Both the position numbers and the translations under genes were made by a program. A stretch of 64,000 bases of DNA from a virus: the UHGV virus genome UHGV-0090440; one strand, written 5' to 3'. Position 1 is the first letter of the stretch. Each line of letters opens with the position of its first letter. The notes under the pieces are model-generated. The model was given only the letters and a program-made list of their open reading frames with translations, had not been told where the DNA came from and searched no databases. Shown in pieces: positions 5,873-64,000 of the stretch.

Positions 5873-5909
5873 TATCTGGAGATTGTGATTTCAATTCATA
5901 TCCCGGCAT

Positions 5910-5945
5910 GGGACTAAAGTGCTTTACATTGTCCCATATTGGGAC
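5910..5945 (+). promoter_or_regulatory. palindromic operator-like sites upstream of higB
   Basis: GGGAC-N16-GTCCC and the perfect palindrome GTCCCATATTGGGAC lie 30-65 nt upstream of higB, consistent with antitoxin autoregulation. Confidence 0.45.
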
Positions 5946-5975
5946 TAGCATACTTTCAGAGAGAAGGAATCTGTG

Positions 5976-6278: not shown

Positions 6279-6281
6279 ATC

Positions 6282-6641: not shown

Positions 6642-6675
6642 GTTTGGCGGTCTGTATGACCGCCTTTGTTGTCAA

Positions 6676-8194: not shown

Positions 8195-8387
8195 AACAAA
8201 GCCTCTCAGTCATAACCTGGGGGAAACTGTATGCAGGGTGTGAAATGCGAGAAACAGACAGGCCACCAGTTCAGGGGGATGTGGTTCATAAATCCCCTCA
8301 CTGGTGACAAGTGACTTTCATTAATCTTTATGCGGGGGCCAGCTTCATTTGCTGGCATTAGATTAAAAATTAAACGGAGTGAATGAC

Positions 8388-8522
8388 ATGGATGTTATCT
8401 TCGAATTATTAATGCTAATTGATCTGTTTATGAACGCCTCATTGACCACGCAAATACTGGCGTCAATATTTTTGTTACTCTTCTACCTGGTATTGAGGGA
8501 GTTAACAAAGCTACTAATGTGA
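8388..8522 (+). CDS. small hydrophobic peptide (44 aa), candidate membrane peptide
   Basis: ATG at 8388 preceded by ACGGAGTG; translation MDVIFELLMLIDLFMNASLTTQILASIFLLLFYLVLRELTKLLM is almost entirely hydrophobic. Not in the supplied ORF track because it is under 60 aa. Confidence 0.25.
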   Translation: MDVIFELLMLIDLFMNASLTTQILASIFLLLFYLVLRELTKLLM

Positions 8523-9176
8523 TCAAAGTATCACGGTATCTTCATCAACTTCTTTCCCAGTCAGTGTCTTTGGCTGGGAGGTGCCTGCTTTAACTTTTTC
8601 ATGCCCAATAATGGACAGGAACGAAGCGAGTATGCCTGTTTTTTGCTCTTTCTCGACTGTACCGGTCATCTGCTCTACGTAATCCGCACTGGCTACATTG
8701 TGGTATACGGTCGCGTAGCAACACAGGATCATCAAAATATGCTCCGGCCTGATATCCTGCCAGTTCACCCGGTAGACTTCTTCTCCGTTACCGTTGTATT
8801 CGGTGTCAACGATGGAGTCAGGGATTTCGAAAGCACCTTTGTTATTTTGCGGCAGGGATAATAGCTTCTGGAGTTTTAACTCTCTGTATCTTTCCATCCC
8901 GACGATGATTGCTGCTCTGCCATCGGCATGACGGGTCTTGAGAGTCACCTGGCTTGCTCCGGTGCCAGCGGAGATCGTTGGCGTAATTTCGTCTACCAGT
9001 ACCTTAAATTTGCTTTTCCGCAGGGCTGCTATAGCTGGAGGAATTTTTTGCTTTTGCTCCAATGCTGACGCGGGAAGGGGTTTTACTTCGTTAATAATGA
9101 GAGCACCGTCTTTCAGTATTGCAGTGAGCATTTGAGGCTTGCTGGTGGTCAGGCTGAATATTGCGATCTTTTCCAT
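8523..9176 (-). CDS. hypothetical protein
   Basis: Start taken at MEKIAIFSL (ATG 9174-9176) with a GGAGGAAGG RBS; the ORF-track extension to 9218 runs into a terminator hairpin. Confidence 0.4.
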   Translation of the reverse strand: MEKIAIFSLTTSKPQMLTAILKDGALIINEVKPLPASALEQKQKIPPAIAALRKSKFKVLVDEITPTISAGTGASQVTLKTRHADGRAAIIVGMERYRELKLQKLLSLPQNNKGAFEIPDSIVDTEYNGNGEEVYRVNWQDIRPEHILMILCCYATVYHNVASADYVEQMTGTVEKEQKTGILASFLSIIGHEKVKAGTSQPKTLTGKEVDEDTVIL

Positions 9177-9202
9177 TGTCCTTCCTCCACGGATGACGGA
9201 TA

Positions 9203-9228
9203 CAAAAAAAGGCCGCACATGGCGGCCT
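9203..9228 (-). terminator. rho-independent terminator (minus-strand orientation)
   Basis: On the minus strand: GGCCGCCATGTGCGGCC hairpin followed by TTTTTTT. Confidence 0.5.
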
Positions 9229-9444
9229 GCTTTGGCGTTATGACTCCCTACCGCGCTTCGGCTGAAAGTTAATCGTCAAAAGAACCTTCAACGGGAGCCG
9301 TTAGCGCGATGGATTATGTGCAGTTTGTGATTTCCAAAATAGTGTCAACCACTTTTGGTGGATTTTATTTTTTAACCGAAATTTGGCCTAAATCATGTTT
9401 ATGTAGTTAATTGTTTTTATAACATAAAAATTCATTTTGTTTGC

Positions 9445-10068
9445 ATGAAGGATGGTGTAGTGAAGTTAAGGGCTTTAGGGGCCGCGCTCGCGGCTATGTT
9501 GGGATGCGTATCTGCTAATACTGCCAATGCAACTGCGTTACCTGCACAATTCAGGGCAGGGCAGCAGGTTATGAATAACGCTGGTGGAGATCATTCACAA
9601 GCGGCCATTATGGACTTTTGCAAGAGGGAGGGCATTCCATTACGGCCTGTTGGAACTCAGTTTATTGGTAAAACTGACTTTTGCGTTTTTGCATATACAG
9701 CATATCTGACGGACAAAGCTATAACAAAAACAGGTTATTCAACCAAAGATACTCTTTCCAGATTAAGTCAGGGATGGCAGCAATTCGAAGTGTATCGCCA
9801 GCAAGGATTAGGTGAGTTATTGCAACCTCTTTTTATGCTTGCGTTGGTGCCAGAGGGGCAGCAATTTTTGGTTAAAAAGGGAATGCTTCGCCAAAGTGAT
9901 ATTGCCGGGTTCGATAGCATGATGGCTTATGAGCGCAAACTAACCGAGCAGCGAAATAAAAAACCATCTGCTTCATGTGTGCAAAGTAAAACAGCAGAAT
10001 ACAGTGCAGTAGCCGGGCCTTTAGCCAAACAAATGGCAGAGCAATGGTGTAAAAAATACGGGCAATAA
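9445..10068 (+). CDS. secreted protein of unknown function
   Basis: N-terminal signal-peptide-like segment (LRALGAALAAMLGCVSANTANA); preceded by an AT-rich intergenic region. Confidence 0.45.
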   Translation: MKDGVVKLRALGAALAAMLGCVSANTANATALPAQFRAGQQVMNNAGGDHSQAAIMDFCKREGIPLRPVGTQFIGKTDFCVFAYTAYLTDKAITKTGYSTKDTLSRLSQGWQQFEVYRQQGLGELLQPLFMLALVPEGQQFLVKKGMLRQSDIAGFDSMMAYERKLTEQRNKKPSASCVQSKTAEYSAVAGPLAKQMAEQWCKKYGQ

Positions 10069-10088
10069 GTTACGCAGCGGAGGCAGAA

Positions 10089-10481
10089 TTGAAAAGATTG
10101 GCTATTGCTTTACTGGCGTCTTTCCCTTTGATCGCGAGCGCCGGAAATTTACAAGTTAAGTGCGGTCGGTTTGATATAAAAATCTATCCAGATGCCATAT
10201 TTCTGAATGGGAATAAGGTTGATAACGCACACCGAAAAACTGAATCTGACGTAATGAGCTATGTGTTCCAGGAGTATGCGGAGATGGGGGGAACTTACAC
10301 GCTGTACTCGCTGGATGTTCCTTCTCGCGGTGATATGACATTATCCCATCAATGGCAGAACGCCGATGGCGAAGCTCTGCGCGAGGTTAAAACAGAAAAA
10401 TGTGGCACTTTCCATTCTTTTAAAGGGAAAGCGCCAAATGTTAAATCTGTGCTTGAAAAACAGCGCGCAGGTGAGCTTTAA
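10089..10481 (+). CDS. secreted protein of unknown function
   Basis: Signal-peptide-like N-terminus MKRLAIALLASFPLIASA; RBS GGAGG 8 nt upstream. Confidence 0.45.
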   Translation: MKRLAIALLASFPLIASAGNLQVKCGRFDIKIYPDAIFLNGNKVDNAHRKTESDVMSYVFQEYAEMGGTYTLYSLDVPSRGDMTLSHQWQNADGEALREVKTEKCGTFHSFKGKAPNVKSVLEKQRAGEL

Positions 10482-11367
10482 ACACCTTTAACCACGGAGA
10501 TGCCGTTCCCTGCACGATAGCGGCGGGGAACGGAATTCTCCATCAGGTCACGAATTACTCCCGCCTCATGTAGTTCCACTGTTTCCCAGTATCTGTTTGT
10601 CGCCAATTACGCCCCGTTCCGCCAGGGGAAGGTATGAACGAGCTTCTGCTTCGGTTGCAGCCATGACGCAGATATACAGGTGTTTTTGGCAGGAATAGAA
10701 ACGCCAGATAAATTCAGAATGAGTTGGGGTGGGGATAGTAGCGATATTGGCAGCCTCCTTTGACTAAGTTAAGGAGCTACCGCGTGAGGTTCCAATCCCG
10801 GCACCCGTTTTTCTAAGGTGCCGTAGAAATATACCCCACGATAAGGCCAGGGCGCAAAAGTCAGTATTTTATGCTTTGGCGGATTTCTTCCGGGCTTGCT
10901 TGCAGGCGTAGGCCATTGCTTTAGCTTTCACTTCATCCAGCTTCCCGGTGATCACTTCTTTTCCGAGAGTGACAAACCAGTCATAGCAACCGCCAGTGAT
11001 GTTCTGGATTTGAAAGTTGAGGTAGCGAACGGTCATTTTGACACCCCCAGCGCGAGTAAAGAATGCAGATTATCGCGTGAGTGGCGGACAACGAGTGACG
11101 GGAAAAGACAGTAGCTGTTCATAGTGTAGTGACTCCTTGCTTTCGGAGCCGCCATCGACTGTTCCACGGTCTGGTGGCGGCGCAATAAAGGCTGGAACAC
11201 CGTGAGTCAACGGGGGCTTTTCAGCCACCTATATTGCACCGCCATAGGTATGGCGGCGGCAATAATACGAAAAACTATACAGTTTGTCTCAAAAAGTTGA
11301 CCGGTGTGCCAATCGGTAGTGAATGTACATCGGAGAAATTTATAATTCAACTTAAAATGTTAGAAAA

Positions 11368-13831: not shown

Positions 13832-14154
13832 TGCCCACATCGCATTCTGCAATTACCCAGGAAAAAGCCTTCCACATACTCGAACGATTAGAGACGCTCG
13901 CTACGGAGGAGGATATATCCCCGGAGATGCTGGTTGAGTGCAGCCGTGTGATATTGCGTCGCAAGAACGACATCGCGCGGCTGACATCTGGCGCACCATC
14001 CGTATCAGCCAGTCCAACGCTTTATTGCAGCTTCTGCAACAAATCCCAGCACACCGTTAAAAAGTTAATTGCCGGGGACAACGCTTTCATATGCAACGAG
14101 TGCGTGAAAGATTGCAACAACATTATCCAGGAAGATCAAAGGGAATCAGCATGA
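13828..14154 (+). CDS. standalone ClpX N-terminal zinc-binding-domain homologue
   Basis: C-terminal 40 aa ([39 protein letters not shown]) align almost residue-for-residue with the E. coli ClpX N-domain ([40 protein letters not shown]), including all four Zn-ligand cysteines; no AAA+ module follows. Confidence 0.6.
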
Positions 14155-14834
14155 AATTTTCCAAATTTTCTGAGTTGGTGAATCGTATTTTGTCCAACAA
14201 CCACAGCCATCGTCGCGATATGGATGTAACGATCGTTGTTCATTCGCCTGGCAGCATTGGTTCAACACCTTCAGTTGAGGTTCAGTCAATTCACGCTGGT
14301 TTTGATTGGGATTCCGGGAAAGTGCTGATTTTCCCAGCACAGGCACTGACCACGCTAACACCAGAACAGATTACTGATATTACTGATAGTGTGCGCAAAG
14401 GTCAGTCCTGGCACGCATATCAGGAATATAAAAAGCATAAAGAGCAGTTGGAAAAATTGTCGATTGAACTGGATGCTGCAAAACAGCGCGTAGCAGAACT
14501 GGAGGCCAGTCGCGTGACGCTGGCGGAGGAGAACTCGTGGCTGAAGATGCTCATAGAAGATCATGCTGGTTGTACTGCTGTCTGCCCAAATTGCTCTCAT
14601 GAAGAACCCAGTGAAACAGACGACATTGTTTGGTCTTACCGTTCACGGGAAACGCCAGCCACCGATGCTTTCCTGGCTGAAGTACGTGCGCAGGGCGTGG
14701 ATATGGCTCGTAACGCGATGATTGATTTTGTCGATGGTGAAGTTGGGCCAAACAAGAACGTTCCGGGGCTGATTAGAGGCGCAGAGATATGCGTAAGTAT
14801 TGCTGAACAGCTTCGCAAAGGAGGCAGCCAGTGA
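14151..14834 (+). CDS. Ea22/Ead-like coiled-coil protein (paralogue 2)
   Basis: Start ATG overlaps the upstream stop (ATGA). Shares [17 protein letters not shown] and the C-terminal [11 protein letters not shown] with the 17717 paralogue. Confidence 0.4.
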
Positions 14835-17430: not shown

Positions 17431-17730
17431 ATGAGTCAAGGTAATGGTGACGGAGCTGCAAAGTGCAGAATCTCCACTTGTTTGATTAATGACAAAAAAA
17501 TAGAACCGTGCGCGGCGTTGGCACAATCCCTGGAGCAGGATGCTGAATACACGACGCGGAAAGGTCTGCTGAAATACAAAATCTATAACCATGAATTAAT
17601 TCATTCACAAGACCTGATCATGCTGCGGTCAGGCGAGCTTTCTAAATCGCCGATTCGAATTTCATTTTGCCCGTTCTGTGGTGAAAGTCTGAAAACGTGG
17701 GAAGCGGAGGCAACCAGTGATCAAAATTAA
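17431..17730 (+). CDS. hypothetical protein with Zn-ribbon-like C-terminus
   Basis: 99-aa ORF; C..C ... CPFC spacing. Confidence 0.3.
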   Translation: MSQGNGDGAAKCRISTCLINDKKIEPCAALAQSLEQDAEYTTRKGLLKYKIYNHELIHSQDLIMLRSGELSKSPIRISFCPFCGESLKTWEAEATSDQN

Positions 17731-18415
17731 CTATCAAGAACTGCGCGAGGCGGCGGAACAGGCAACGCAAGATGAATGGGTAGCATATATTTTGCCGGGT
17801 CATAACGGCATTTATCCTGCGCGCACGTCTGAGGGTAGGCATTGCGGATACTTTATTGACTGGCCTGGCATTGATGGACAAAGAAATGCTGGTGCTAATG
17901 CCCGTTATATCGCGGCTATCCCACCAAAAGTTGCGCTGGCACTCCTGGGCGAAATTAAGCGCCTGGAGGACACAAATATTGATGCTATGTGCCGAATAGC
18001 ACCGCTTGAGACTAAGCTCGCGGCTCTGGTGGCAGAGAACGCCGGGCTGAAACTCGCAATGGCTGTAACTCTTAATCATGTGTCGGTCACGGATGCAGGG
18101 CAGGCCGGAGTTGCTGCAATGATAATCAACGATGCTCTGCACCACAGCGAAACCCCAGCCACCGATGCTTTTCTGGCTGAAGGGAAGACTGAAGCACGCA
18201 AGGAAGGCGCTTATTTTGTGGCGAACAGAATGTTGGCAGCCTGGAAAGCTGGTTTTATTGATGATACTGCGAAGAACGCCGCGGATATTGCCCGGATGAT
18301 CCTTACCTCTACTGAGTTTATGGCTAATGCGCCGGAAGGCGATTTTGATCGCTCATTCTCTGATGGCGTTCTCGAAGATATCGCCGAACAGCTTCGTAAA
18401 GGAGTCATCCAATGA
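17717..18415 (+). CDS. Ea22/Ead-like protein (paralogue 3)
   Basis: N-terminus KINYQELREAAEQATQDEW and C-terminal [11 protein letters not shown]...[11 protein letters not shown] shared with paralogues. Confidence 0.4.
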   Translation: MIKINYQELREAAEQATQDEWVAYILPGHNGIYPARTSEGRHCGYFIDWPGIDGQRNAGANARYIAAIPPKVALALLGEIKRLEDTNIDAMCRIAPLETKLAALVAENAGLKLAMAVTLNHVSVTDAGQAGVAAMIINDALHHSETPATDAFLAEGKTEARKEGAYFVANRMLAAWKAGFIDDTAKNAADIARMILTSTEFMANAPEGDFDRSFSDGVLEDIAEQLRKGVIQ

Positions 18416-19122
18416 GCAAGATTGATTATCAAAAGCTTCGTGAAATCGCTGAAAAAACAAAAATTGCTGGTGAAGCACCTGTAATGCCTTTCGATCAGCG
18501 AATTAATGCGCTTAACGATTTTATGAAGCACTTTTCGCCAGATATCGCGCTGGCATTGTTGGATGAATGGGAAAGAAACCAGCAATACATAAAACGCCGC
18601 GATCAGGAGAACGAGGATATTGCGCTAACGGTAGGGAAGCTGCGCGTTGAGCTGGAAGGCAAAGACAGCAAAATAGCCAATCTTACCGCCGAACGCGATG
18701 CTCTTCGTGAAGGTGAGATGGGCGACGCTAGGCATAGCAACACACGGGCCGCAGCTGATATCTACTTCCAACTGGTCGAGGAGTGCGAAATTCCTGCTGG
18801 CGGTTCTCTGGTCGAGTACGTTGACGATATGCGCGAGAAGCTGGAAGCCGCAGAGAAGCGCATTGCAGAACTGGAAAGCAACGAAGTCCGTGAAGTCGGA
18901 AATCAGTTTCTTGTTGTTCGCCATCCTGGGAAAACTCCTGTCATCAAGCACTGCACTGGTGACCTGGAAGAGTTTCTGCGGAAGTTAATCGAACAAGACC
19001 CGTTAGTAACTATCGACATCATTACGCATCGCTATTACGGGATTGGCGGTCAATGGGTTCAGGATGCAGTTGAGTATCTGCATATGATGTCTGACGCTGG
19101 CATTCGCATCAAAGGAGAGTGA
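18412..19122 (+). CDS. Ea22/Ead-like coiled-coil protein (paralogue 4)
   Basis: N-terminus SKIDYQKLREIAEKT and coiled coil LEAAEKRIAELESNE parallel the other paralogues. Confidence 0.4.
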   Translation: MSKIDYQKLREIAEKTKIAGEAPVMPFDQRINALNDFMKHFSPDIALALLDEWERNQQYIKRRDQENEDIALTVGKLRVELEGKDSKIANLTAERDALREGEMGDARHSNTRAAADIYFQLVEECEIPAGGSLVEYVDDMREKLEAAEKRIAELESNEVREVGNQFLVVRHPGKTPVIKHCTGDLEEFLRKLIEQDPLVTIDIITHRYYGIGGQWVQDAVEYLHMMSDAGIRIKGE

Positions 19123-19123
19123 T

Positions 19124-19954
19124 ATGAGCGCTATAACCAAAGATCGACTACTGACAATCAAGCAGTGGCGCGAAACATACGGACCTGGTAGCAACGTTGT
19201 ACTGCCAGCAGAAGAAGCGGAAGAACTGGCGCGGATTGCGCTGACATCGCTGGAAGCAGAGCCTATTGGTGAAGTTTCAGAGAAGCAACATGGCCTTGTT
19301 ATGGATGGGACGGTAGACCTTGGCGGGAAATCAACTTATCGCATCATTAAGGGAGAAAAAGCGATGAAGTTGTTGCCGTTGGGGACGAAGTTTTATACCG
19401 CACCGCCAGCGCCGATAACGCCGGAGGCCATTGAAAACGCAATTGAATACATCCGCAGTATCGCTTTTCACATCGATGAAGACGATTACCACGGCAAACA
19501 TATTGCGTATTTCATGCGACAAGCATTGGCCTGGCTGGAAGGGCATTCATGCAGCGACGACAGACAGGGTAAAGCCGAGAATCAACCAGTACGCGGCAAC
19601 CATGCTGCCGAATCCAATCGCGGTAATGAGTGGACCGGCAATCCTGATATTGATAACGCAATCATCATGCTCGACCGCATAGATACGCTGGAAAATTGCG
19701 ATGATGACCGTATTGAGGCTGTTAAGGCCGTTTTGCGTAGACTGGCTGGCAACCATCCGGATTTTCCGGATAGCTCCCAACAATCGCCCAAGGAAAGCGT
19801 AAAAACCACTCTGGAAAGAGGCTATCTTGAGGCCGCATTAAAGATTAAGCCGGGCCATACGCTAGGCGTCATTGATGCCATGTTGGTTCATGAAATGGCG
19901 AAGGCTTTATTGCCGCTGGTGGCTGATAAAATTCCGAATAAGGCCGATATCTGA
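19124..19954 (+). CDS. hypothetical protein
   Basis: 276-aa ORF, last gene of the plus-strand block, followed by a terminator. Confidence 0.35.
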   Translation: MSAITKDRLLTIKQWRETYGPGSNVVLPAEEAEELARIALTSLEAEPIGEVSEKQHGLVMDGTVDLGGKSTYRIIKGEKAMKLLPLGTKFYTAPPAPITPEAIENAIEYIRSIAFHIDEDDYHGKHIAYFMRQALAWLEGHSCSDDRQGKAENQPVRGNHAAESNRGNEWTGNPDIDNAIIMLDRIDTLENCDDDRIEAVKAVLRRLAGNHPDFPDSSQQSPKESVKTTLERGYLEAALKIKPGHTLGVIDAMLVHEMAKALLPLVADKIPNKADI

Positions 19955-19965
19955 TCACCATGCTA

Positions 19966-19997
19966 AAATCCCCTCAATTCACAGAGGGGATTTTTGT
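19966..19997 (+). terminator. rho-independent terminator
   Basis: Stem atcccctc/gaggggat with 9-nt loop followed by TTTTGT. Confidence 0.55.
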
Positions 19998-19999
19998 AT

Positions 20000-20266
20000 A
20001 TGTTGCATAGAGTTTTATGGAAAAGCGTTATTGTCGGCGCGATCTTGGCTATGTCTGGGTGTGCAATGGTGCAATACAACGACGGTGAAAAGGTAAGCAT
20101 CCAGTCAGATGGCTGGTATGGGCTGGATAGTCTGCAAAAAACCGCAGATAAAGCCTGTCAGCAATATGGGAAGTCTAAAGCCGTATATCAGCATAGCGCG
20201 AACGCTAATCCCCATCTCGCGCCCGGTACGGGCGTTCAGAACACCATTTGGAAATGCGAACCATAA
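20000..20266 (+). CDS. putative small lipoprotein
   Basis: Start at ATG 20000 (MLHRVLWK...); signal-peptide-like segment ending in AMSGC (lipobox-like). Confidence 0.35.
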   Translation: MLHRVLWKSVIVGAILAMSGCAMVQYNDGEKVSIQSDGWYGLDSLQKTADKACQQYGKSKAVYQHSANANPHLAPGTGVQNTIWKCEP

Positions 20267-20305
20267 TGCTGGTGGCATCTTTGTTACAAAGAGGAACACC
20301 TGCTC

Positions 20306-22992: not shown

Positions 22993-23655
22993 TCACTCCA
23001 CTACAAACCAGTCACATGCCAGTAAGTCGCCTACAGAAGGAACCCACGGAACAACTACACCTTGTGCATTTTTTAAGGCGAAATAAGCACCATACGGAAC
23101 GAGATCGCCGGGGAAATATCCCTTAATGGCTTCCATTCGTGCCGGGTACTGTCCTTCAGGAACCAGCCAGCAGAATTGGTTTTCGCCGTTCCACCCGCGC
23201 CGGGCAACTTTCTTGCCATCCTTCAGCCACATCAGCGCGTCAGAAAAGTCGGCTGCTTCAAGGTCGATTTCTTCTTGTAGAGTAGCGATACCGCCAGCAG
23301 AAATAGTTACGTCCCTGGCTGTAATGAATGTCACCCCATTGTGACCTTCAATGCTGAGCGATACCCCATTTTCGGAGGCGACGTTAACCCGGCTATAGCA
23401 TTTTTCAAATGCTTTCTCTGGCACATAGACCAGATAGCCATTTTCAGCAGTGACGAGATATCCTCCTATTTGCGGTCGGAATTTTTCCAAGAACGCACCA
23501 TCAACACGAAGCGTCATTCCTTTTGGCTCAACGACTTCGATACTGCCAAAAATGGGCGCATAAGCTTTGCCGACAATAACAATATCTTTGATTTTCGATG
23601 CCCGAATGATGCTGTGGCATTTGTATTTGGGGAACACCTGAAAAGTGCTGACCAT
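22993..23655 (-). CDS. hypothetical protein (DUF2829-like C-terminal motif)
   Basis: C-terminal W..KDGKKV.RRGW...VP....GDLLACDW resembles the DUF2829 signature as I recall it. Confidence 0.35.
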   Translation of the reverse strand: MVSTFQVFPKYKCHSIIRASKIKDIVIVGKAYAPIFGSIEVVEPKGMTLRVDGAFLEKFRPQIGGYLVTAENGYLVYVPEKAFEKCYSRVNVASENGVSLSIEGHNGVTFITARDVTISAGGIATLQEEIDLEAADFSDALMWLKDGKKVARRGWNGENQFCWLVPEGQYPARMEAIKGYFPGDLVPYGAYFALKNAQGVVVPWVPSVGDLLACDWFVVE

Positions 23656-32322: not shown

Positions 32323-32398
32323 CAACCAAATATGGTGGCCCCTACCGGACTTGAACCGGTGACCGTGCGATTATGAGTCGCCAGCTCTAACCACTGAG
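32323..32398 (-). tRNA. trnI: tRNA-Ile (anticodon CAT, lysidine type) - could alternatively be Met
   Basis: 76-nt cloverleaf ending CCA; anticodon loop CTCATAA; close to E. coli ileX (GGCCCCTTAGCTCAGTGGTTAGAGCAGGCGACTCATAATCGC...) from memory. Confidence 0.7.
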
Positions 32399-32562
32399 CT
32401 AAAGGGCCAGATTACTGTTAATTCCGCTTACGCTTTTTGCCAGGACCGCGTAAGGCTTTTGCTGCTTGCTCGACCCCATATACAACCACCAGCAGAAATA
32501 AAAATGTCCACCAAGGGTTCTTATCGGCAAACGTCCAAAATTCCATCATGTTCTCTATTTGG

Positions 32563-33390
32563 TTATTTCACCGGAACAAACGGAACAGCGGTATTACTGG
32601 TCATATACTGCGGTAGCGTTCCGTTCCATTTGTTGATCGCTTCCAACTCCATAACGCCGGGGTTCTGGCGCAGAGCCTCACCGCGTAAACGAATGGCATC
32701 AGCTTCAGCCTGGGCTTTTGTGCGAATGGCATCGGCCTGTCCGGCAGCTTCTGCGCGCAGCATGTTGGCTTCTGCTTCGCGTTGCTTGACTTCCTGCTCG
32801 CGTTGCAGAGTTTTCTGGTTCGCCGTGACTTTGGCATTAATGCTGTCGATAACGGTTGGCGGGTACTCCGGCTTGCCCACATATGAGAGGCTCATTACCT
32901 GAATACCGATGGGCGTCATTTCTTCCTGGATGTCTTTAAGAGCTGCATCCAGTAGTTCAGACTTGCCACCGTCGATAAATTTGTCGGTGGTCATTTTGCT
33001 GGCCAGTCGGTTAAGTGCGTCGGCAATCTTCTGGCGCAGATCGGTGTCGGTAATGTCATCCACGCCTTTGCGGTAGGTCTGAAATACAGTTGTGACTTTT
33101 GCCGGATCAACCTTGTAAGCTACACCAATGTGGTAACCAATTGTTGTCCCGTCGCTCATTTGGAAGCTGAACGGATCATCATAGGTCTTCATTTGCTTAA
33201 AGGTCGGGAAGATATAAACTTCTGTGTTCCAGCCTGTCCAGTAGCGACCAACGCCAACTACTTCGCCGACACCTTTATCATCCCCCAGCTTATTTACTTT
33301 GATCCCTACATTGCCTGGTTCTACCCGGTCGCATCCGGTCAGACATAAAGAACCAAAAATAATCGCTGCACTAATCAACGTTTTTTTCAT
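32563..33390 (-). CDS. plp: SPFH/band-7 domain lipoprotein (Plp-like)
   Basis: Signal peptide with lipobox LTGC; SPFH-like core; coiled-coil C-terminal region (QREQEVKQREAEANMLRAEAAGQADA). Confidence 0.6.
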   Translation of the reverse strand: MKKTLISAAIIFGSLCLTGCDRVEPGNVGIKVNKLGDDKGVGEVVGVGRYWTGWNTEVYIFPTFKQMKTYDDPFSFQMSDGTTIGYHIGVAYKVDPAKVTTVFQTYRKGVDDITDTDLRQKIADALNRLASKMTTDKFIDGGKSELLDAALKDIQEEMTPIGIQVMSLSYVGKPEYPPTVIDSINAKVTANQKTLQREQEVKQREAEANMLRAEAAGQADAIRTKAQAEADAIRLRGEALRQNPGVMELEAINKWNGTLPQYMTSNTAVPFVPVK

Positions 33391-33607
33391 TAATCAATTT
33401 CCTGGTTTTTTCACGAAAAAAGACTACTGCAAAAGCCGGGTAAATGAGCGCGAGAAGGACTCCCAACAATACAAGTATTGTGCTGTCAGATGAGATCATA
33501 TTTGGCAAAAGCCAAACATACAGAACCAGTGACACAATCAAACAGAGGACGGCATAAATATATAGCCGCACCCATAGCGTTCGACATTTGTTCGGATTGT
33601 TCTGCAT
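33371..33607 (-). CDS. upl: small membrane protein upstream of plp (Upl-like)
   Basis: 78 aa with two hydrophobic helices; overlaps the plp start. Confidence 0.45.
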   Translation of the reverse strand: MQNNPNKCRTLWVRLYIYAVLCLIVSLVLYVWLLPNMISSDSTILVLLGVLLALIYPAFAVVFFREKTRKLINEKNVD

Positions 33608-33754
33608 CCTCTCACTCCATTATTCAACGAATAAAAAAGCTGCGGTGCCTGGTGCCTCCAGGTGACGTTAACCAGTTAACAATTAACGCCGGGATGTTTG
33701 ATTTAACCACTACGGAGGATTGTTTTAACTGTTCCGCGTGCGCTTAGCCGCATT

Positions 33755-33869
33755 CACCGCAATGGTAAGAGCACTTGGCTGGCTGGGCGGCGATGACGCC
33801 TGTACGCATTTGGTGATCCGGTTCTGCTTCCGGCATTCGCTTAATTAGCCAAATACTCTTAACGTTGCG
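33755..33869. repeat. long imperfect hairpin element U1
   Basis: Arms ccgcaatggtaagagcacttgg / ccaaatactcttaacgttgcg; abuts the 3' end of the tRNA-Ser-like gene. Confidence 0.4.
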
Positions 33870-33956
33870 CTGGCGGAGAGTAATGGAATCGAACCATCAT
33901 CGCTTGCGCAATGGGACGGTTTTCAAGACCGCTTGAGCACCATGCTCCCTACTCTC
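33870..33956 (-). tRNA. tRNA-Ser-like (anticodon TGA), class II, atypical D-arm
   Basis: Acceptor GGAGAGT/ACTCTCC with discriminator G and CCA; anticodon arm GCGGT-CTTGAAA-ACCGT nearly identical to E. coli tRNA-Ser(UGA); long variable arm; T-loop TTCGATT. The D-arm is short and irregular, so it may be a tRNA-like RNA or pseudogene. Confidence 0.4.
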
Positions 33957-34081
33957 CAATTGTTGTGGTTACCGGTACTGATCTCCGGCTTAGCGACCCC
34001 GGCTACTGACTGCATTGCAGTGTGTGAACTCGCCTCGTGTGTCGCTGGGGCATTTCTTTCCGCGCATCAGTCTGCGCATCA

Positions 34082-34158
34082 ACCACAACGGAAAGAGCAT
34101 TGGCTAACCAGGCTCGCCGACTCTTCACGATTATCGGCCCAATGCTCTTACCTGTTGT
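34082..34158. repeat. long imperfect hairpin element U2
   Basis: Arms ccacaacggaaagagcattgg / ccaatgctcttacctgttgtg (about 20 bp stem) around a 34-nt loop. Confidence 0.4.
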
Positions 34159-34340
34159 GCGCTCCGTTTCGTGGAGCTAACGGCGGGTGATCGGGCCGCA
34201 CCAGACTGGACTTATTTCAGCGTTATGCTCATGCCAGAGAATCAAACTGTGATGGTCGGTGCTGAACTCCGACACAGGGTTGTAGCAAGCCCCGCAAAGC
34301 GCGCACTACTGTAGTTGCGGCACATCAGCCTGTGCATTCA

Positions 34341-34435
34341 CCACAATGTTGAGAACACTGGTTGTCACGCTGCCTCGCGACCTTTATTCATAGATTGGGA
34401 TATGACCCCGTTACGCCAATGTTCTCAACGTTGTA
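34341..34435. repeat. long imperfect hairpin element U3
   Basis: Arms ccacaatgttgagaacactgg / ccaatgttctcaacgttgtag; stem differs from U2/U4 by compensatory changes. Confidence 0.4.
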
Positions 34436-34574
34436 GTGCCGGTTACGGTTCCGGCCAGGCTTCTTCCTCAACGGGGTGTTCTCCATACGGACTACCGTTT
34501 ATTGGTCGTTCCTGCGGTTTATGTTGTGAAGCCAGATGCTTATCTTCTGGTTGCTTCAAAGAGCTGCACTTCAT

Positions 34575-34661
34575 CACAACGGTAAGGGTACTTCGTAGGG
34601 ATTCGAACCCTCTGCCAAGCTCGGCGATCTCCGACGTCGCAAAATACCCTTACCTGTTGTG
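34575..34661 (-). ncRNA. hairpin element U4: long stem enclosing a tRNA-like T-arm (candidate small stable RNA)
   Basis: Arms cacaacggtaagggta / tacccttacctgttgtg; the loop on the minus strand contains AGGG-TTCGAAT-CCCT, a canonical T-arm. Lies directly 3' of tRNA-Thr on the same strand. Confidence 0.35.
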
Positions 34662-34662
34662 T

Positions 34663-34738
34663 TGGTGCCGGTTAACGGACTCGAACCGCTGACATCCTGC
34701 TTACAAGGCAGGCGCTCTACCAACTGAGCTAAACCGGC
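34663..34738 (-). tRNA. trnT: tRNA-Thr (anticodon TGT)
   Basis: 76-nt cloverleaf: acceptor GCCGGTT/AACCGGC, D-arm GCTC-AGTTGGTA-GAGC, anticodon loop CTTGTAA, T-loop TTCGAGT, 3' CCA. Confidence 0.75.
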
Positions 34739-34742
34739 AATT

Positions 34743-34829
34743 TGGTGGGGAGTGATGGAGTCGAACCACCCGAGTCGCAATGACAGTAGATTTACAGTCT
34801 ACCCCGCTGCCCCTACGGACTAACTCCCC
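34743..34829 (-). tRNA. tRNA-Tyr (anticodon GTA), class II
   Basis: Acceptor GGGGAGT/ACTCCCC, anticodon arm GTAGA-CTGTAAA-TCTAC (identical loop to E. coli tRNA-Tyr), long variable arm, T-loop TTCGACT, CCA end. Confidence 0.55.
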
Positions 34830-34834
34830 TAAAT

Positions 34835-34909
34835 TGGCGATGGTGGGTGGATTCGAACCACCGACCAGTTGGTTAACAGCCAACTGCTCTACCGCTGAGC
34901 TACACCATC
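34835..34909 (-). tRNA. trnA: tRNA-Asn (anticodon GTT)
   Basis: 75-nt cloverleaf: acceptor GATGGTG/CACCATC, D-arm GCTC-AGCGGTA-GAGC, anticodon arm GTTGG-CTGTTAA-CCAAC, T-arm GGTGG-TTCGAAT-CCACC, CCA. Confidence 0.75.
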
Positions 34910-46811: not shown

Positions 46812-47467
46812 AAAAAGCCCCGACCAGGCCGGGGCATCACGCTTCAAGTCACGATCCAATCATTACCGACTATATCAGCCGTCGATAAATCAACTTCCCG
46901 GATCTGGAGTCCATCAGTGTGCCTCCGCAATGCTGGGATTGGTAATATTGCGATACCAGGGATTAGTGTTTGGTTGTGGGGAAGTAGAGAAACGACCAGT
47001 AAGAACACCATACTGATCAGGGATCAGAGAACGGGCTTCTTTTTCGGTTGCGGCAATTGCGAAGTGATCGCAGTGTTTTTGCAGGGAGTGGAAACGCCAG
47101 ATGAATTCTGGACGTGAGCAAGGATTGGCATTAACCATAGTTACGGCCTCACTAACAGGTTTAACAACCTGCTACCCGCTGTCAAACAGGTGGCAGGACG
47201 TGACAGGGTTGACAGACTGGCGTTAGTGAAACCAGCAGGCCGAAGCCTCCCCATCACGCCCCACCATAATTCGGGCGTAACGCGATTTACGGACACAAAA
47301 ATACCGCAATATCGGAAATCTGCGGTTGTCCGCACTAACATTCAGGCTGTCAAACCTGGTCGCAGAATTTGCTACGACGGCATTAATATAAGCCTGAAAA
47401 CATGGAAGATCAACTAAAAATTTCAGCAATGGATGACTTCAGTCGATGATGCAGATCATACATTCCG

Positions 47468-56295: not shown

Positions 56296-56621
56296 TATTT
56301 CTCTCCACCTTTTCCCCCATTCGCTATTACGCTTAAGAGATTCAAGACGTTACTAGCTCTGGACTTCAAGCCCTGTAAAATTTCTCTTCCGTTGTTACTG
56401 GCAATCAGAACAACGCAGAAAATGATACCTTCAGGCCATTCCTGGCTAACCGCCACCCCATACCCCGCAAGCCCGGCTGTTACCGCAGTAAACAATTCAC
56501 TCGCAAGATTGAGCAGGGACGCAGAAATGCGCCCGTCTCTAACTCCGAGAAGGAATACGCCGGTTCCACTTAGTAGGGATGTTATGACTACTACAGCCAG
56601 ATTTTCATAATCTGCAAACAT
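56295..56621 (-). CDS. lydA: LydA-like holin
   Basis: 108 aa with hydrophobic helices and a charged C-terminus (P1 LydA is about 109 aa); stop overlaps the lydB start. Confidence 0.55.
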   Translation of the reverse strand: MFADYENLAVVVITSLLSGTGVFLLGVRDGRISASLLNLASELFTAVTAGLAGYGVAVSQEWPEGIIFCVVLIASNNGREILQGLKSRASNVLNLLSVIANGGKGGEK

Positions 56622-56726: not shown

Positions 56727-57287
56727 ATGCTTATTGGATACATTCGCGTATCAACTAATGACCAAAACACAGCTTTACAACGAAACGCCCTTGAAAGCGC
56801 AGGATGTGAGCTAATTTTTGAGGATAAGGCGAGCGGCAAAAAGGCTGAACGCCCTGGGTTAAAAAAGGTTCTCCGTATGCTTTCCAGAGGTGACACCCTA
56901 GTCGTATGGAAGTTAGATCGTCTTGGGCGCAGTATGCGTCACTTGGTTGTGCTGGTGGAAGAGCTTCGTGACATAGGCATTAACTTCCGGAGTCTCACTG
57001 ACTCCATCGACACCAGTACACCAATGGGGCGCTTTTTCTTTCACGTAATGGGGGCGCTGGCAGAAATGGAACGTGAACTTATTGTTGAACGTACACGAGC
57101 TGGACTTGATGCAGCTCGCGCAGAAGGTCGAATAGGTGGGCGTCGGCCTAAATACCAGGAAGAAACATGGCAGCAAATGCGGCGATTGCTGGAGAAGGGC
57201 ATCCCCCGTAAGCAGGTTGCAATCATCTATGATGTGGCTGTTTCCACTCTTTATAAGAAGTTTCCGGCGTCATCATTTCAATCCTAA
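56727..57287 (+). CDS. cin: serine DNA invertase (Cin/Gin/Hin family)
   Basis: MLIGYIRVSTNDQNT...LVVWKLDRLGRSM...SPMGRFFFHVMGALAEMERELI...GRIGGR is near-identical in pattern to Gin/Cin, with the catalytic Ser in RVST; lies adjacent to the invertible segment. Confidence 0.9.
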   Translation: MLIGYIRVSTNDQNTALQRNALESAGCELIFEDKASGKKAERPGLKKVLRMLSRGDTLVVWKLDRLGRSMRHLVVLVEELRDIGINFRSLTDSIDTSTPMGRFFFHVMGALAEMERELIVERTRAGLDAARAEGRIGGRRPKYQEETWQQMRRLLEKGIPRKQVAIIYDVAVSTLYKKFPASSFQS

Positions 57288-57304
57288 ACCTTGGTTTAAG
57301 AGAA
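57279..57304. promoter_or_regulatory. cixL crossover site
   Basis: CAATCCTAAACC-TT-GGTTTAAGAGAA: 26-bp site with the TAAACC/GGTTT half-sites of gix/hix/cix around a 2-bp core; overlaps the cin stop. Confidence 0.75.
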
Positions 57305-59740
57305 CTCGGTACCAGCGGTGAAAAGATCCCCCTGTTGAGCACGGCTAACACATGGAGTGCGCGCCAGACTTTCAACGGCGGGATCACCGGGGCGCTGACA
57401 GGGAACGCCGACACCGCGACGAAACTTGCGACGGCAAGAAACATCAACGGTGTTAAATTTGATGGTTCTGTGGACATTTCGATACCAACAATTACGTCCA
57501 GAGGGCGTGTTACTGCGCTCACCGGTACAACACAAGGTGCTGCTACTGGATTGCAAATGTATGAGGCGTACAACAACGGCTATCCTTCTGCTTACGGGAA
57601 TGTGCTTCATCTTAAGGGCGCAACGGCAGTTGGTGAAGGTGAGTTGTTCATAGGTTGGAGCGGTACAAGTGGCGCTCATGCACCTGTACATGTACGTTCG
57701 CGACGAGATACTGATACAGCCAGTTGGTCAGAGTGGGCGCAGGTCTACACATCGAAGGATTCCATCCCTGGTGTAAATACCACGGGCAACCAGAACACAA
57801 CCGGAAACGCGGCGTCTGCAACGAAATTACAAACGGCAAGAACTATTGGTGGTGTTTCATTTAATGGCACCGCAAACATCGACCTGCCGGGCGTGAATAA
57901 AACAGGCAATCAGAGCACTACCGGCAATGCAGCTACAGCCACAAAACTGCAAACAGCACGCACCATTAATGGGGTTTCATTTGACGGAACGGCTAATATT
58001 TCTCTGTCACCGGCAAATATTGGTTGCCCGGCATCTCCTACTGGTTGGCTTGAAACAGGTGATAATGGAGCATCAATAACAACAGAGCAATTAGTGACTC
58101 TGCTACGAGATAATGGTGCTTTTAATGCAAAGGTATGGATAGCGCGTTGTGCCTGGGCGTATGCAAATAGTGCATCCATACCAGACAGCGAAACAGGATG
58201 CGGCATTATTCCACTGGCTGGCGCAGTTATAGAGGTATTTAATAATAGCAGTAGCACGAGTTATTTTACCATTCGTATAACAACGGCAACGACGACAAGT
58301 GTATCTGGCGCACTCACTAATGCTGAATTTATCTATGTGTCTAATGGCACAAGTTATTCACCAGGATGGCGCAGAGCGTATAACACTAAAAACAAACCTA
58401 CTGCGGCTGATGTCGGAGCTTTACCACTATCTGGAGGAGCGTTAACTGGCGGATTAACTGCTGCTGGCGAGATTATTTCCAAATCGGCGAATGGTCTGCG
58501 CATTGCCTATGGCAACTATGGATTCTTTATCCGTAATGACGGCGGCAGCACATATTTCATGCTAACAGCATCAGGAGATACGTTAGGTTCATGGAACAGT
58601 TTGCGACCGATTACAATTAATAATACCAGCGGTGTTGTGTCTATTGGTAATGGACTAAATGTTACTGGTGGCGTTAATGGTAGTTTGAACGGTAATGCAG
58701 CGACAGCGACCAAGTTACAAACCGCTAGAACTATAAATGGGGTGTCGTTTGATGGTTCTAAAAATATTGAGCTAACGGCGGAAGATTTAAATCTTGAGCA
58801 AACTGTAGAATTAGCCGCAGGAGCATTGCAGAAAAACCAGAACGGCGCAGATATTCCGGGAAAAGATACCTTCACTAAAAATATTGGTGCATGTCGCGCT
58901 TTTCACAGTTCTATTAGTACAGGTGCAGGGAACTGGACAACGGCACAATTGATTGAATGGCTGGATTCTCAAGGGGCATTCAATCACCCATACTGGATGT
59001 GCAAATGTTCATGGTCATACGGCAGTAATAAAATTATTACTGACACCGGATGTGGACTTATTCACCTTGCGGGTTGCGTTATTGAAGTTATGGGCTATAA
59101 AGGCGCCATGACCATTCGTATAACCACACCGAGTACCTCTAACGGTGGTGGCACTACGAATGCGCAATTTATATATATTAACCACGGTTCAGAGTATTTA
59201 CCTGGCTGGCGACGTGACTACAACACGAAAAACCAGCAGCCTGCATTTGCTTTAGGGCAGACAGGAAGCATAGTTGGAAATGACAAAGCTGTTGGATGGA
59301 ACTCGATTAGCGGGGTTTATAACGCTAATATTGGTGGATCATCTACGTTGATTCTCCATTTTTATATGGGAGCTGGTAGTTGTCCGGCTGTTCAGTTCCG
59401 CGTGAATTATAAGAACGGCGGTATTTATTATCGTTCTGCGCGTGACGGTTATGGTTTTGAAGCCGACTGGTCGGAATTTTATACTACAACACGTAAACCA
59501 TCTGCGGGAGATGTTGGGGCATATACCAAAGCAGAATGTGATTCACGATTTATTACAGGTATTCGATTAGGTACAAAATCGTCTGTGCAAACATGGAATG
59601 GTCCTGGATGGAACGATAAATCTGGTTATGTTGTTACTGCCTCAATTAACTCAAATAAGGACGAACTTATTGATACAACTCAGGCAAGGCCGCTGCAGTA
59701 TTGTATCAATGGTACATGGTATAACGCGGGAAGTATTTAA
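57290..59740 (+). CDS. alternative tail-fibre variable part (Sv'), currently promoterless and silent
   Basis: Reading frame opens at cixL; the first about 45 aa ([46 protein letters not shown]) are identical to an internal stretch of the minus-strand S gene; repeated [23 protein letters not shown] units follow. Confidence 0.7.
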
Positions 59741-59742
59741 TT

Positions 59743-60276
59743 ATGCAGCATTTAAAAAACATCAGATCAGGTAATCCAAAAACTGTTAAACAATATGAAT
59801 TGACGCGACAATTTGGTGTTGTCTGGTTGTATTCTGAAGACGGTAAAAACTGGTATGAGGAACAAAAGAACTTCCAGGATGACACTATAAAAATTGCTTA
59901 CACATCAGATGGAGTTATTGTGGCTATAAATAAAGACGTATCTACAATAAATCCAGAAGGTTTAAGTGTGGTTGAGGTTGCTGACATTACCGCAAATCGC
60001 CGTGCTGACATTTCTGGTAAATGGATGTTCAAAGATGGCGTAGTGATAAAGCGAACTTATACCGAGGAAGAACAGAGGCAACAAGCTGAAAATGAAAAGC
60101 AAAGCCTATTGCAACTTGTCAGGGATAAAACCCAACTGTGGGACTCACAGCTACGGCTGGGCATCATTTCCGATGAGAATAAACAGAAATTAACCGCGTG
60201 GATGCTATATGCGCAGAAAGTAGAATCTACAGATACCTCCATCCTGCCAGTAACGTTTCCCGAACAACCAGAATGA
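59743..60276 (+). CDS. alternative tail-fibre assembly chaperone (U')
   Basis: 177 aa; paralogue of the minus-strand U gene (shared GNPKTV.QY.LT..F...W...[19 protein letters not shown]). Confidence 0.7.
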
Positions 60277-60303
60277 GAAAAGGCCCGTTATCGGGCCTTA
60301 TTT

Positions 60304-60831
60304 TTACTCAGGTTTTTGTGGCCATTCTGGCTTTGACGTATCCACGCGGCTTACAAGAACGCTGTAGCGTTCCCATGCTTCCAGTCGGCTGTGGTCCTCA
60401 TCCGTTGCCATATTCAGCCTTACTGCACGCTCTAGTAGTTGAATGACTGATTCAGCATCAGCAAGAAGTCTGGCTTTCTGATTTTCTACCTGCTGCTGTA
60501 ATTCCTCTGCCGTATAAATACGTTTAATAACTGCGCCATCCTTAAACATCCAGTTACCAGAAATGTCGGCACGTCGGTTAGCAGTAATATCCGGCACTTC
60601 AACAACACTTAATCCATCCGGTCTGATAGCTGTTACATCCTTTTCCACATAGCGGATGATGTTATCTTTGTCATACGCTAATTTTATCGTGTCATCCTGG
60701 AAGTTCTTTTGTTCCTCATACCAGTTTTTACCGTCTTCTGTAAAAAACCAGATGACATCAAAATGTTTCGTCAGCTGGTATTGCTCAACTGTTTTTGGAT
60801 TACCCGCTGTTATATTGATCAAATGCTGCAT
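60304..60831 (-). CDS. U: tail-fibre assembly chaperone U (expressed orientation)
   Basis: Start taken at [18 protein letters not shown], 4 nt after the S stop; homologous to U'. Confidence 0.7.
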
Positions 60832-60835
60832 AAAT

Positions 60836-63800
60836 TTAAACCTGTGCCACGTTATACCATGTTCCATTAATCTGTTTCTGAACCGGCCTGTAATATACAC
60901 CTCCAATATTATCGGCAGAATTCGAGCCGGTATCCTGGACTATAATGCCAGTATAAACGCAGCCTGATGGTGCCTGATGCGTCCATGTCGAGGTGTTATT
61001 TGCTGGTTTATATGTAGATGCTCCACCAAGTCGCATGTCTCTTACATAACGAGAATCAAAGTTACCGTAATCCGAGGGGTTAACACGCCCTGTAATATTT
61101 ATGGTTTTATTACTTTGAATGCTGCCGGAGACAAAGCGCATAACATGAACGTTATTAGCATAAACGTCCAGATTACCGTCGCCATTTTGTTTAAAGCCCG
61201 TGTCATTATCACCCAAAACAATCGAGTTACCGCCAAGAGCACTGGATGTTCCGATGCCCAGTGCACCATTCAATTGACCGCCAGATAATGACAACGCCCC
61301 AACCTCAGCAGCAGTCGGTTTAATGTGCGAACTGTAAATTACATATACAGTTCCATCTGTCAGGCCTGTTGGTTTATTCGCTGTATAAGTTGGTGATGTA
61401 TGAATCGTTACGCTGGCGTTACTGGTATAATCCCACTGAATATTAACACCTGTGGCGTAATTACCTATTTCAACATAAACATCATAGGTATCACCGGATG
61501 TATTCACCCATGCAAAATTAGTAAATCCAACCGAGGTCCGTCGCCATAATGCACCAGTAATACCTTTTGGATTTCCATTTCCTGCACGCAGAACCAGCTC
61601 AGAGATGCCTGCTTGCTGCGGGGAGCCAACGTTAAACCCTGCACCACCAATCAGGCTTATGTAAACCACGGAACTGGCCTGTGGCATGGTTACAGTTGCC
61701 AGTTTGAACCATCCAGCACCACCACTAAAAGACATTGTTGTGGAGTTGATCGTGCCTATAGACCGTGGGTTAAGTTCAATATCTTTAGAACCATCAAACG
61801 AGACGCCGTTGATAGTACATGCTGTCTGCAACTTGGTCGCTGTCGCTGCATTACCGGTAGTGTTCTGATTACCTGTTTTATTCACACCTGGCAGGTCGAT
61901 ATTGGCACTACCATCGAATGACACTCCGCCTATTGTGCGTGCTGTTTGCAGTTTTGTTGCAGTTGCAGCATTACCGTTCAAACTACCATTGATGCCGCCA
62001 GTAACATCCAGACCATGCCCCATGCTTATCCGACCAGTTCTAAGATTAAGCGTAAAGGGACGTAGTGGCCCTATATCACCATTTTCCCCCTCATTCTCTC
62101 GTGTAGGGATGATATGCAGGCATTCTTCAGAACGACGAAAAATAGCACCAAAAGATGAATTAAATATCCTTAGTGCATTGACTGTCGATATTTTTACTTC
62201 ACTGCTGAAAAGGGCTTTAACAAGGACAGACAAAGCATCCCATTTAAGATTCATCAGGTCTTTTGTTGTGGTGCTCTGGCGACTTCTCCATTTGAAATAT
62301 TCATTGCCGTTGTCGCCTGTTTCAAACCACATGTATGAATCAGTATCGCTGTCGGCATCATTTTTAAAACCAATCTTCGCCCAGTCAGTATTCCGAATCC
62401 AGGCAAGGATTGAGTCGTTTTCAAAAGTAAGTCCACCGGACAAGGTATCGCCTGTCTTTTGAACCGCGTTATCAGCCTTGTTTACCGTTTCCTGTAGATT
62501 TAAATCTTCCGCCGTTAGCTCAATATTTTTAGAACCATCAAACGACACCCCATTTATAGTTCTAGCGGTTTGTAACTTGGTCGCTGTCGCTGCATTACCG
62601 GTTGTGTTCTGATTACCTGTTTTATTCACACCTGGCAGGTCGATATTGGCACTACCATCGAATGACACTCCGCCTATTGTGCGTGCTGTTTGCAGTTTTG
62701 TTGCAGTTGCAGCATTTCCTGAAAGGCTTGAAACAAACTGATGTGAGCAGTAATAACCACGTCCATTTTTAAAATCCAGAATGGTTTGAGTATTTGTACT
62801 TTCTGCTACTGGATCTGTGGCCCCCCACTTATAGGTGGCTTGACCAACGGTATAGTCAGTAGTAGGAACAATTACGTTCAAGCCCTCCTCAGCAAATATC
62901 TTGATAGGAAATGCTCTGGCTTCAACGTAAAATACACTACACAAATCGTCATCTTTCACACTTGAAATAATCGAGTGTATAGCTCGCTCAGTAGTAGAAT
63001 ATATTGAGAAAAAACCAGCTGCATATGAACCGCGATCAGACCAACCGCCAGGCATAACAAAACCATTAAATTCACAATTATTCATGGCGTATCCGCCAGC
63101 TGAGGAATAAGTAGTTATCACAACTCGTGAGGCTAATTCATCGGTACTGCCTCCAGATCGGCGAAAGACTATAGGATACCACTTACCGCTTACTGCATTT
63201 GCAGGCGCTGAAAAAGTGTATTTTCTCATCCCTTTTTTATTGTCTATTTCGCTTTTGCTGTAAACGTCCAGATCTTTAGGAGTCAACGTAATGTCAGCCG
63301 AACCATCGAACCTGACGCCATTAATGTTTATGGCTGTTTTCAATTTCGTCGCGGTGTCGGCGTTCCCTGTCAGCGCCCCGGTGATCCCGCCGTTGAAAGT
63401 CTGGCGCGCACTCCATGTGTTAGCCGTGCTCAACAGGGGGATCTTTTCACCGCTGGTACCGAGTTCTCTTAAACCAAGGTATTGGATAACGGCCAGTGTG
63501 CTTGTTTTAGCCAGAATATCTCGACCGACTGACGTTAAATCAGTCTGCGCTACCGTATCCTTACCAGTGAAATAAGGCAGTTTGTTTGCGCCTGTCGCAA
63601 GACCAGCAAGCGCGGTTAAAGTTGCATCAAGTGGCTGTTTCCCTGCCAGCGCATTTGTCATTGTTGTCGCAAAGTTCGGGTCATTGCCCAGTGCTGCTGC
63701 AAGCTCATTCAGGGTATCAAGAGCTTCAGGTGATGAGCCGACCAATGCAGAGATAGCAGCCCGTACGTAAGCAGTCGTAGCGATCTGCGTATTGTTTGTG

Positions 63801-64000
63801 CCCTGTGCAGCCGTAGGCGCAGTAGGGACACCCGTTAATGCAGGGCTTGCCAAAGGCGCTTTGAGAGCCAAGGCATTGTTGATAGTTGTGCTGTAATTCG
63901 GGTCGTTATTGATCGCAGCCGCTATTTCTTTCAGCGTATCCAGTGTGCCAGGCGCACCGTTGATAAGTGCAGTTATAGCTGCCTTAACAAAGGCTGTATT
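60836..64000 (-). CDS. S: tail-fibre protein S (5' end lies beyond the window)
   Basis: The frame stays open to the window edge; the ORF-track TTG start at 63871 is internal. It crosses cixR at 63464-63489, so the constant N-terminal part joins the variable part (60836-63463) in the current orientation. Contains [15 protein letters not shown](G/N)GVSFDGS repeats. Confidence 0.8.
63464..63489. promoter_or_regulatory. cixR crossover site
   Basis: TTCTCTTAAACC-AA-GGTATTGGATAA: differs from the Mu gix site (TTCCTGTAAACC-GA-GGTTTTGGATAA) as I recall it at only about 3 positions outside the core; in inverted orientation to cixL, with about 130-bp inverted repeats (57293-57423 and 63344-63475) inside it. 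Confidence 0.75.

Follow-up and report, generated by a model that had tools for sequence, protein, structure and literature searches.

The DNA-inversion switches that select between alternative tail fibres in phages P1 (Cin and the C-segment) and Mu (Gin and the G-segment) depend on a mechanism that has been textbook knowledge since the 1980s. A locus of the same design occupies positions 56727 to 64000 of the 64,000-nucleotide stretch of virus genome UHGV-0090440 analysed here (the window). It contains the invertase gene cin and, next to it, a 6.2-kb segment that holds two alternative C-terminal parts of the tail-fibre gene S, and it is very probably a working switch of the P1 Cin/C-segment type, with two states set by DNA inversion, on a D6-like phage-plasmid. 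The gix sites of Mu differ in sequence from the cix sites of P1, and the fibre gene of phage P2 is single and non-invertible. The S and S' fibres of P1 have been shown to confer different host ranges: S binds outer-core sugars of lipopolysaccharide and S' binds the O-antigen (PMC13172314). The P1-related plasmid p15B has the multiple-inversion system Min, in which a Cin-family invertase acts on tail-fibre gene segments (P1 record notes; PMC6906374). In Escherichia phage D6 the inversion region is annotated 'by homology with P1'; this region is where D6 and P1 resemble each other most, and among D6-like plasmids no other part varies as much (PMC6799933).

The window corresponds to positions 1-64000, in the same coordinates, of an 87,377-bp source scaffold (ENA ERZ28589553, DAVI15-1_SAMEA3360674_METAG-scaffold_20). 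The locus has the gene order and orientation of P1, with the lysis genes followed by cin, cixL, Sv' and U', then U and S on the minus strand, cixR and Sc. Its components are as follows.

56727-57287, plus strand: cin, a serine DNA invertase of 186 amino acids (Pfam Resolvase 3e-50, HTH_7 3e-18), with the catalytic Ser9 in YIRVST
56745-56816, unstranded: recombinational enhancer (sis element) inside the 5' end of cin, assigned by homology
57279-57304, plus strand: cixL, CAATCCTAAACC TT GGTTTAAGAGAA, with the central TT at 57291-57292, overlapping the cin stop codon
57281-57481, unstranded: left arm of the terminal inverted repeat, encoding the common start of Sv and Sv'
57292-63476, unstranded: invertible C-segment, 6,185 bp between the central dinucleotides
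57292-59740, plus strand: Sv', the silent alternative C-terminal fibre part, 816 codons without an N-terminus of its own
59743-60276, plus strand: U', tail-fibre assembly chaperone paired with Sv', 177 amino acids (Pfam Caudo_TAP 6.5e-36)
60304-60831, minus strand: U, chaperone paired with Sv, 175 amino acids (Pfam Caudo_TAP 1.4e-34)
60836-63476, minus strand: Sv, 880 codons, the variable part to which S is joined in the present, expressed orientation; S reads across cixR into it and ends at 60836
63287-63487, unstranded: right arm of the terminal inverted repeat, from the repeat scan
63464-63489, minus strand: cixR, TTATCCAATACC TT GGTTTAAGAGAA, with its centre at 63476-63477, within the S reading frame
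63477-64000, minus strand: Sc, the constant N-terminal part of S, cut by the window edge and reaching 64690 in the source scaffold

The initial annotation had placed cin beside a 6.2-kb segment bounded by inverted 26-bp cix sites, with inverted repeats of about 130 bp inside them, and each of these elements was recovered. Both cixL and cixR are identical to the annotated P1 sites of the same name at 26 of 26 positions; the two are mutually inverted, and both have the central TT when read from outside to inside. The terminal inverted repeats are perfect over 134 nucleotides counted from the cix centre (559 nucleotides in P1) and 90% identical over 201 nucleotides. Cin matches P1 Cin at 183 of 186 residues (98%), the differences being V6I, E12D and R83I, and it matches the Gin structure 3uj3 with E = 4e-88. 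It has the N-terminal resolvase domain, the C-terminal helix-turn-helix and the catalytic serine of a small serine recombinase. The predicted enhancer is identical at 68 of 72 positions to the P1 element annotated as 'enhancer of Cin-mediated C-segment inversion' (P1 31678-31749).

The Min system has six crossover sites, whereas two are present in the window. The whole 64 kb was scanned with a 26-bp position-weight matrix built from invertase half-sites, with 20 shuffles as control. The scores of cixL and cixR were 27.5 and 29.9, compared with 11.8 for the next best site in the 64 kb and a shuffle maximum of 15.7. Neither this half-site matrix nor a 14-mer search allowing three mismatches gave a third cix-like site above the shuffle range in the 64 kb. 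With no more than two cix sites, the switch is predicted to have two states. At 6.2 kb, and with several inverted repeats in its interior, the segment might recall a multi-site system of the Min or plasmid-shufflon type, in which Cin inversions at several sites would generate more than two fibre genes. These repeats are, however, homologies between coding modules and lack the cix core, and the best internal candidate, at 61753-61778, scores 8.5, which is within the shuffled range. A Min-like multi-inversion system was rejected, since the 14-mer and matrix searches returned the two terminal sites only, and it has next to no probability.

S reads on the minus strand through cixR into one variable part and is followed by U, as initially described, and its N-terminus is indeed cut by the window edge. 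The complete S in the source scaffold is 1,284 amino acids long, with 230 codons outside the window; Sc accounts for 404 codons before the crossover and has R and gene 16 upstream of it. The two variable parts had been put at about 800 and about 880 codons and described as different in sequence. They are 816 and 880 codons long, with 32% global identity and 21% across the last 300 amino acids. In silico inversion of 57292-63476 fuses Sc (404) in frame to Sv' (816), giving an intact S' of 1,220 amino acids with U' 2 nucleotides later, so that the reading frames of Sv and Sv' are both in register across the crossover. The locus has the layout of a P1/Mu fibre switch, with Sc outside the segment and, inside it, two opposed C-terminal parts that are both in frame and have their own Caudo_TAP chaperones. 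Every sequence-testable feature of a Cin/Gin-type inversion switch and of a P1/Mu-type fibre switch was found. U is 77% identical to P1 U, and U' is 83-85% identical to its counterparts in P1, Mu (85%) and D6; both chaperones are 99% identical to those of the closest plasmid, NZ_CP074369 (L002). Open reading frames that adjoin cin and are annotated as 'tail fiber protein' are silent C-terminal cassettes rather than stand-alone genes.

Both states of this 6.2-kb segment exist among near-identical elements. In contig AAYOXG010000016.1 of the public isolate assembly GCA_016555225.1 (L023), the whole segment is present at 99.45% identity in the opposite orientation, between flanks whose identity to the window is 98.7% on the cin side and 99.5% on the Sc/R side. 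The outer cix half-sites of L023 are swapped at the central TT, as they are in plasmid CP063732, and its S' frame is intact at 1,218 amino acids. A metagenome scaffold (L025) has the segment in the orientation of the window at 99.69% identity. A U' protein identical to that of the window occupies the silent position at five loci (L022, L025, L027, L028 and L030), the scaffold of the window itself being among them, and the expressed position at four others (L023, L026, L029 and L031). The initial annotation had named a single orientation as the observation that would speak against a switch; public assemblies hold the same segment in both states. These two orientations are directly established, as are the anatomy of the locus, the identity of its sites and enzyme to those of P1, and the continuity of the frames.

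Two further observations concern the public contigs. Gene R of L023 (locus positions 4190-4339) was called as a 49-amino-acid fragment, which may reflect a frameshift or an assembly error. Several public contigs with an identical cin (L016, L017 and L018) end 30-120 nucleotides past cin, right at the cix site and inverted repeat. Such breaks are expected if both orientations coexisted in the sequenced culture, or from the repeat alone.

Sv' is open over all of its 816 codons, and U' likewise has no stop codons; cin, both cix sites and the predicted enhancer are intact; and L023 is a near-identical element in the other orientation. These observations make it highly improbable that the locus is a frozen relic locked in the S orientation, with Sv' and U' as decaying remnants, even though this assembly and three other contigs with an identical Sv' open reading frame have a single orientation, and impaired switches have been reported for some P1-like plasmids (PMC6906374).

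In L023 the crossover can be narrowed down no further than the stretch of identity, and for this reason RecA-mediated exchange and Cin action are inseparable by sequence. The first 134 nucleotides of the L023 repeat contain no polymorphisms that would be informative in separating the two. It has to be considered that both orientations in the relatives came from RecA-dependent recombination between the terminal repeats, which at 134-200 nucleotides are long enough for RecA, and that Cin is dispensable or inactive, for example through R83I, which is not found in P1, D6 or Gin. Several lines of evidence make this very unlikely. P1-like and D6-like backbones are in other respects only about 70-90% identical or cannot be aligned, and yet each 26-bp site in them matches P1 at every position, a pattern that indicates selection on the cix sites themselves. 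In D6 the perfect repeat extends over only 25 nucleotides, and nevertheless both states are found among D6-like elements. At position 83, P1, D6 and Gin have R and gamma-delta resolvase has Q, and the residue is not conserved across the family. The exact window Cin protein, with I83, was found in 263 blocks of the public collection; because of this wide occurrence I83 Cin is a common allele and not a private lesion, and it is linked to segments in both orientations. R83I as the mark of a dead Cin was rejected as unlikely on these grounds.

Some points weigh against a functional Cin switch. In comparison with P1, D6 and Gin, Cin has the substitution R83I, which may affect its activity. The sample gave one assembled orientation and no direct evidence of inversion within it. 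The L023 crossover lies somewhere from the outer half-site to the end of the 134-nucleotide perfect repeat, which is as closely as it can be located. No P1-type late promoter was recognised by eye upstream of R in the source scaffold, and the R-S-U operon has its promoter outside the window. The receptors were deduced solely from similarity of the fibre tips.

In the mechanism proposed for the Cin switch, Cin would bind the two inverted 26-bp cix sites, and host Fis bound to the enhancer in the 5' end of cin would take part in a synaptic complex on supercoiled DNA. Cin would cut both sites at the central TT, rotate the DNA and religate it, leaving the 6,185-bp segment flipped. Since the promoter, gene R and Sc are outside the segment, its orientation would decide which C-terminal part is joined to Sc in frame, by the same Sc-fusion logic as in P1. 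The product of the present state would be Sc-Sv, a fibre of 1,284 amino acids with a P2 H-like tip, co-transcribed with chaperone U, and that of the flipped state would be Sc-Sv', of 1,220 amino acids with a P1 S'/Mu S'-like tip, made with chaperone U'. A lysogen population would then yield two kinds of virion that differ in receptor specificity. Fis dependence, the strand-exchange chemistry, the rate of flipping and the receptors are presumed.

The variable parts were compared with those of P1 and Mu, as the initial annotation had advised. Sv' shares 87% identity with P1 Sv' over its distal 362 amino acids and 80% with Mu S' over the distal 319. It also has a trimerisation module like that of T4 gp34 and a tip of the gp37_C type. 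Over its last 167 amino acids Sv shares 90-91% identity with the C-terminal end of the P2 tail fibre protein, and the Sv tip is 81% identical to fibres of P2-like Yersinia pestis phages. Identity of this tip to P1 S and Mu S is 42-50% over the last 80 or so amino acids (42% over the last 83 for P1 S), and it is not of the P1 S type. The tip module alone is common to the window S and the P2 fibre H/chaperone G system. By these similarities the tips appear to be of two different known types, P2 H-like (expressed) and P1 S'/Mu S'-like (silent), which supports the earlier proposal of two receptor specificities, and the phage would probably alternate between two host ranges. The tip types could guide host prediction or the design of transducing particles. 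Mu has a homologous invertase and the same design of S/U versus S'/U', but its fibre is much shorter (504 amino acids) and its invertase gene faces away from the segment.

The C-segment is 4,257 bp long in P1 and 4,266 bp in D6 as opposed to 6,185 bp in the window, and lengths in relatives range from 4.26 to 6.87 kb. D6 has the same cin upstream region and the same cix sites, and 62% of the window locus aligns to it at 84% identity, but in the window Sv and Sv' have additional modules, and the S tip differs. Across the phage, plasmid and E. coli collections, coverage of the locus stays below 80% for every record; the best is NZ_CP074369, with 79% coverage and 94% identity. Compared with this plasmid, Sv' is longer by a block of about 820 bp (57868-58689), which holds the T4 gp34-like trimerisation domain, and the module at 57840-58720 was found in 150 P1-like plasmids at a coverage of at least 80%. 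Sv has a 744-bp in-frame insert that resembles a duplication, is flanked by 203-nucleotide direct repeats and is in part 93% identical to P1 Sv. The repeats within the segment are listed here.

61773-61975 and 62517-62719, unstranded: direct repeat inside Sv, 203 nucleotides, 93% identical, the copies 744 bp (248 amino acids) apart and in frame
58690-58807 and 62483-62600 (Sv), unstranded: internal inverted repeat, 118 nucleotides, 97% identical, in the same codon phase in both arms (from coordinates)
57803-58000 and 62522-62719, unstranded: internal inverted repeat, 75% identical, in frame

NZ_CP074369 has a single copy of the Sv direct repeat. The idea that the extra length of about 2 kb over P1 is novel sequence was rejected, as it consists of modules common in P1-like plasmids and the duplication-like block. 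This extra length amounts to ordinary tail-fibre mosaicism.

The internal repeats coincide with points at which blocks of homology to relatives begin or end. In L028 and L030 the two middle modules of the window (57803-58756 and 61769-62719) are present reverse-complemented in the opposite arms, with breakpoints at the internal repeats. This pattern suggests homologous exchange between the arms at conserved junction motifs. Homologous exchange at conserved junctions is a known mode of fibre evolution, and module exchange over evolutionary time is likely here. It is doubtful, although conceivable, that there is a second level of shuffling besides the Cin flip, driven by homology or RecA, through which one element could give four or more fibre architectures. 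If so, recombination at the internal repeats would swap tips or middle modules between the two stems. What is new in this proposal, and unproven, is that modules would be exchanged measurably often inside one lysogen population.

A related arrangement was seen on a 513-kb contig of GCA_024449585.1 (L024, locus 5029-10486), where the exact U' protein is encoded in a chromosomal lambdoid prophage. The order there is a 989-amino-acid side tail fibre, U', U, a silent fibre fragment of 320 amino acids and a truncated resolvase of 64 amino acids. This locus looks like a decayed invertible fibre cassette in an unrelated type of phage.

Two candidate expression signals were found around cin and between the chaperone genes.

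56584-56611, plus strand: candidate sigma-70 promoter for cin, ATGACT-16-CATAAT, 9/12 (weak evidence)
60280-60299, unstranded: bidirectional intrinsic terminator between the convergent U' and U, AAGGCCCG-TTAT-CGGGCCTT, a perfect hairpin with T-runs on both strands

The promoters annotated in P1 as P1cin and P2cin are not conserved upstream of the window cin, because the DNA there is D6-like. A sigma-70 scan of the plus strand from 57292 to 59743 gave no convincing site for the transcription of Sv' and U', and a scan with the consensus of six annotated P1 late promoters gave no match of at least 9/10 upstream of these genes. Sv' and U' do lie on the plus strand as initially described, and their description as promoterless holds at the level of consensus matches. 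They run in the same direction as cin with no terminator-like site found in between, and for this reason may be transcribed by read-through from the cin promoter.

The backbone of the element is about 93% identical to and collinear with that of D6, the identity ranging from about 90 to 98% along the window. D6 sequence is missing or replaced at 5892-6683, 9503-10792, 14136-14820, 17749-20292, 23316-23652 and 32551-34322. The source scaffold as a whole looks like a near-complete D6-like phage-plasmid. P1 differs from the window in its backbone and in the region upstream of cin, which is unrelated; when P1 positions 1-48000 were compared with the window, two short stretches aligned outside the cin/C-segment locus, at 67-70% identity. 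Genome-wide similarity of this order falls short of that used for the genus Punavirus (P1), and the backbone is best described as D6-like. The D6-like backbone and the ordinary mosaic origin of the extra segment length had been missed in the initial annotation. The switch itself is ordinary and intact, of the P1 type, and only its mix of fibre modules is new. The variation of D6-like and P1-like inversion regions is already known and the practical value of one more is modest, but the locus offers a clean and complete metagenome example of a D6-like phage-plasmid with a predicted host-range switch.

Elsewhere in the window, C4 antisense RNA and a1/b1 target elements lie at 47186-47271 and 47339-47391 (minus strand), upstream of icd/ant-like genes; these elements are part of the P1-type ImmI immunity region. 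Five tRNA genes, for Met, Ser(UGA), Thr, Tyr and Asn, are clustered at 32333-34909 (minus strand). The D6 annotation holds only the Ser, Thr and Asn tRNAs, tRNA-Met and tRNA-Tyr being extra in the window. Adjoining this cluster, in a stretch that does not align to D6, is a gene for an SPFH/Band-7 domain protein (32563-33390, minus strand), relatives of which are annotated in some P1-like phages. Other stretches without alignment to D6 also encode proteins. At 5973-6638 (plus strand) a HigB-type toxin (Pfam 3.5e-34) is followed by an HTH_3 protein, and the two resemble a toxin-antitoxin pair. Two open reading frames without a Pfam match are found at 9445-10481. A 2.5-kb stretch not present in D6 has, at 17717-19951 (plus strand), a tandem pair of Ead/Ea22-like genes and an open reading frame of 276 amino acids without a Pfam match.

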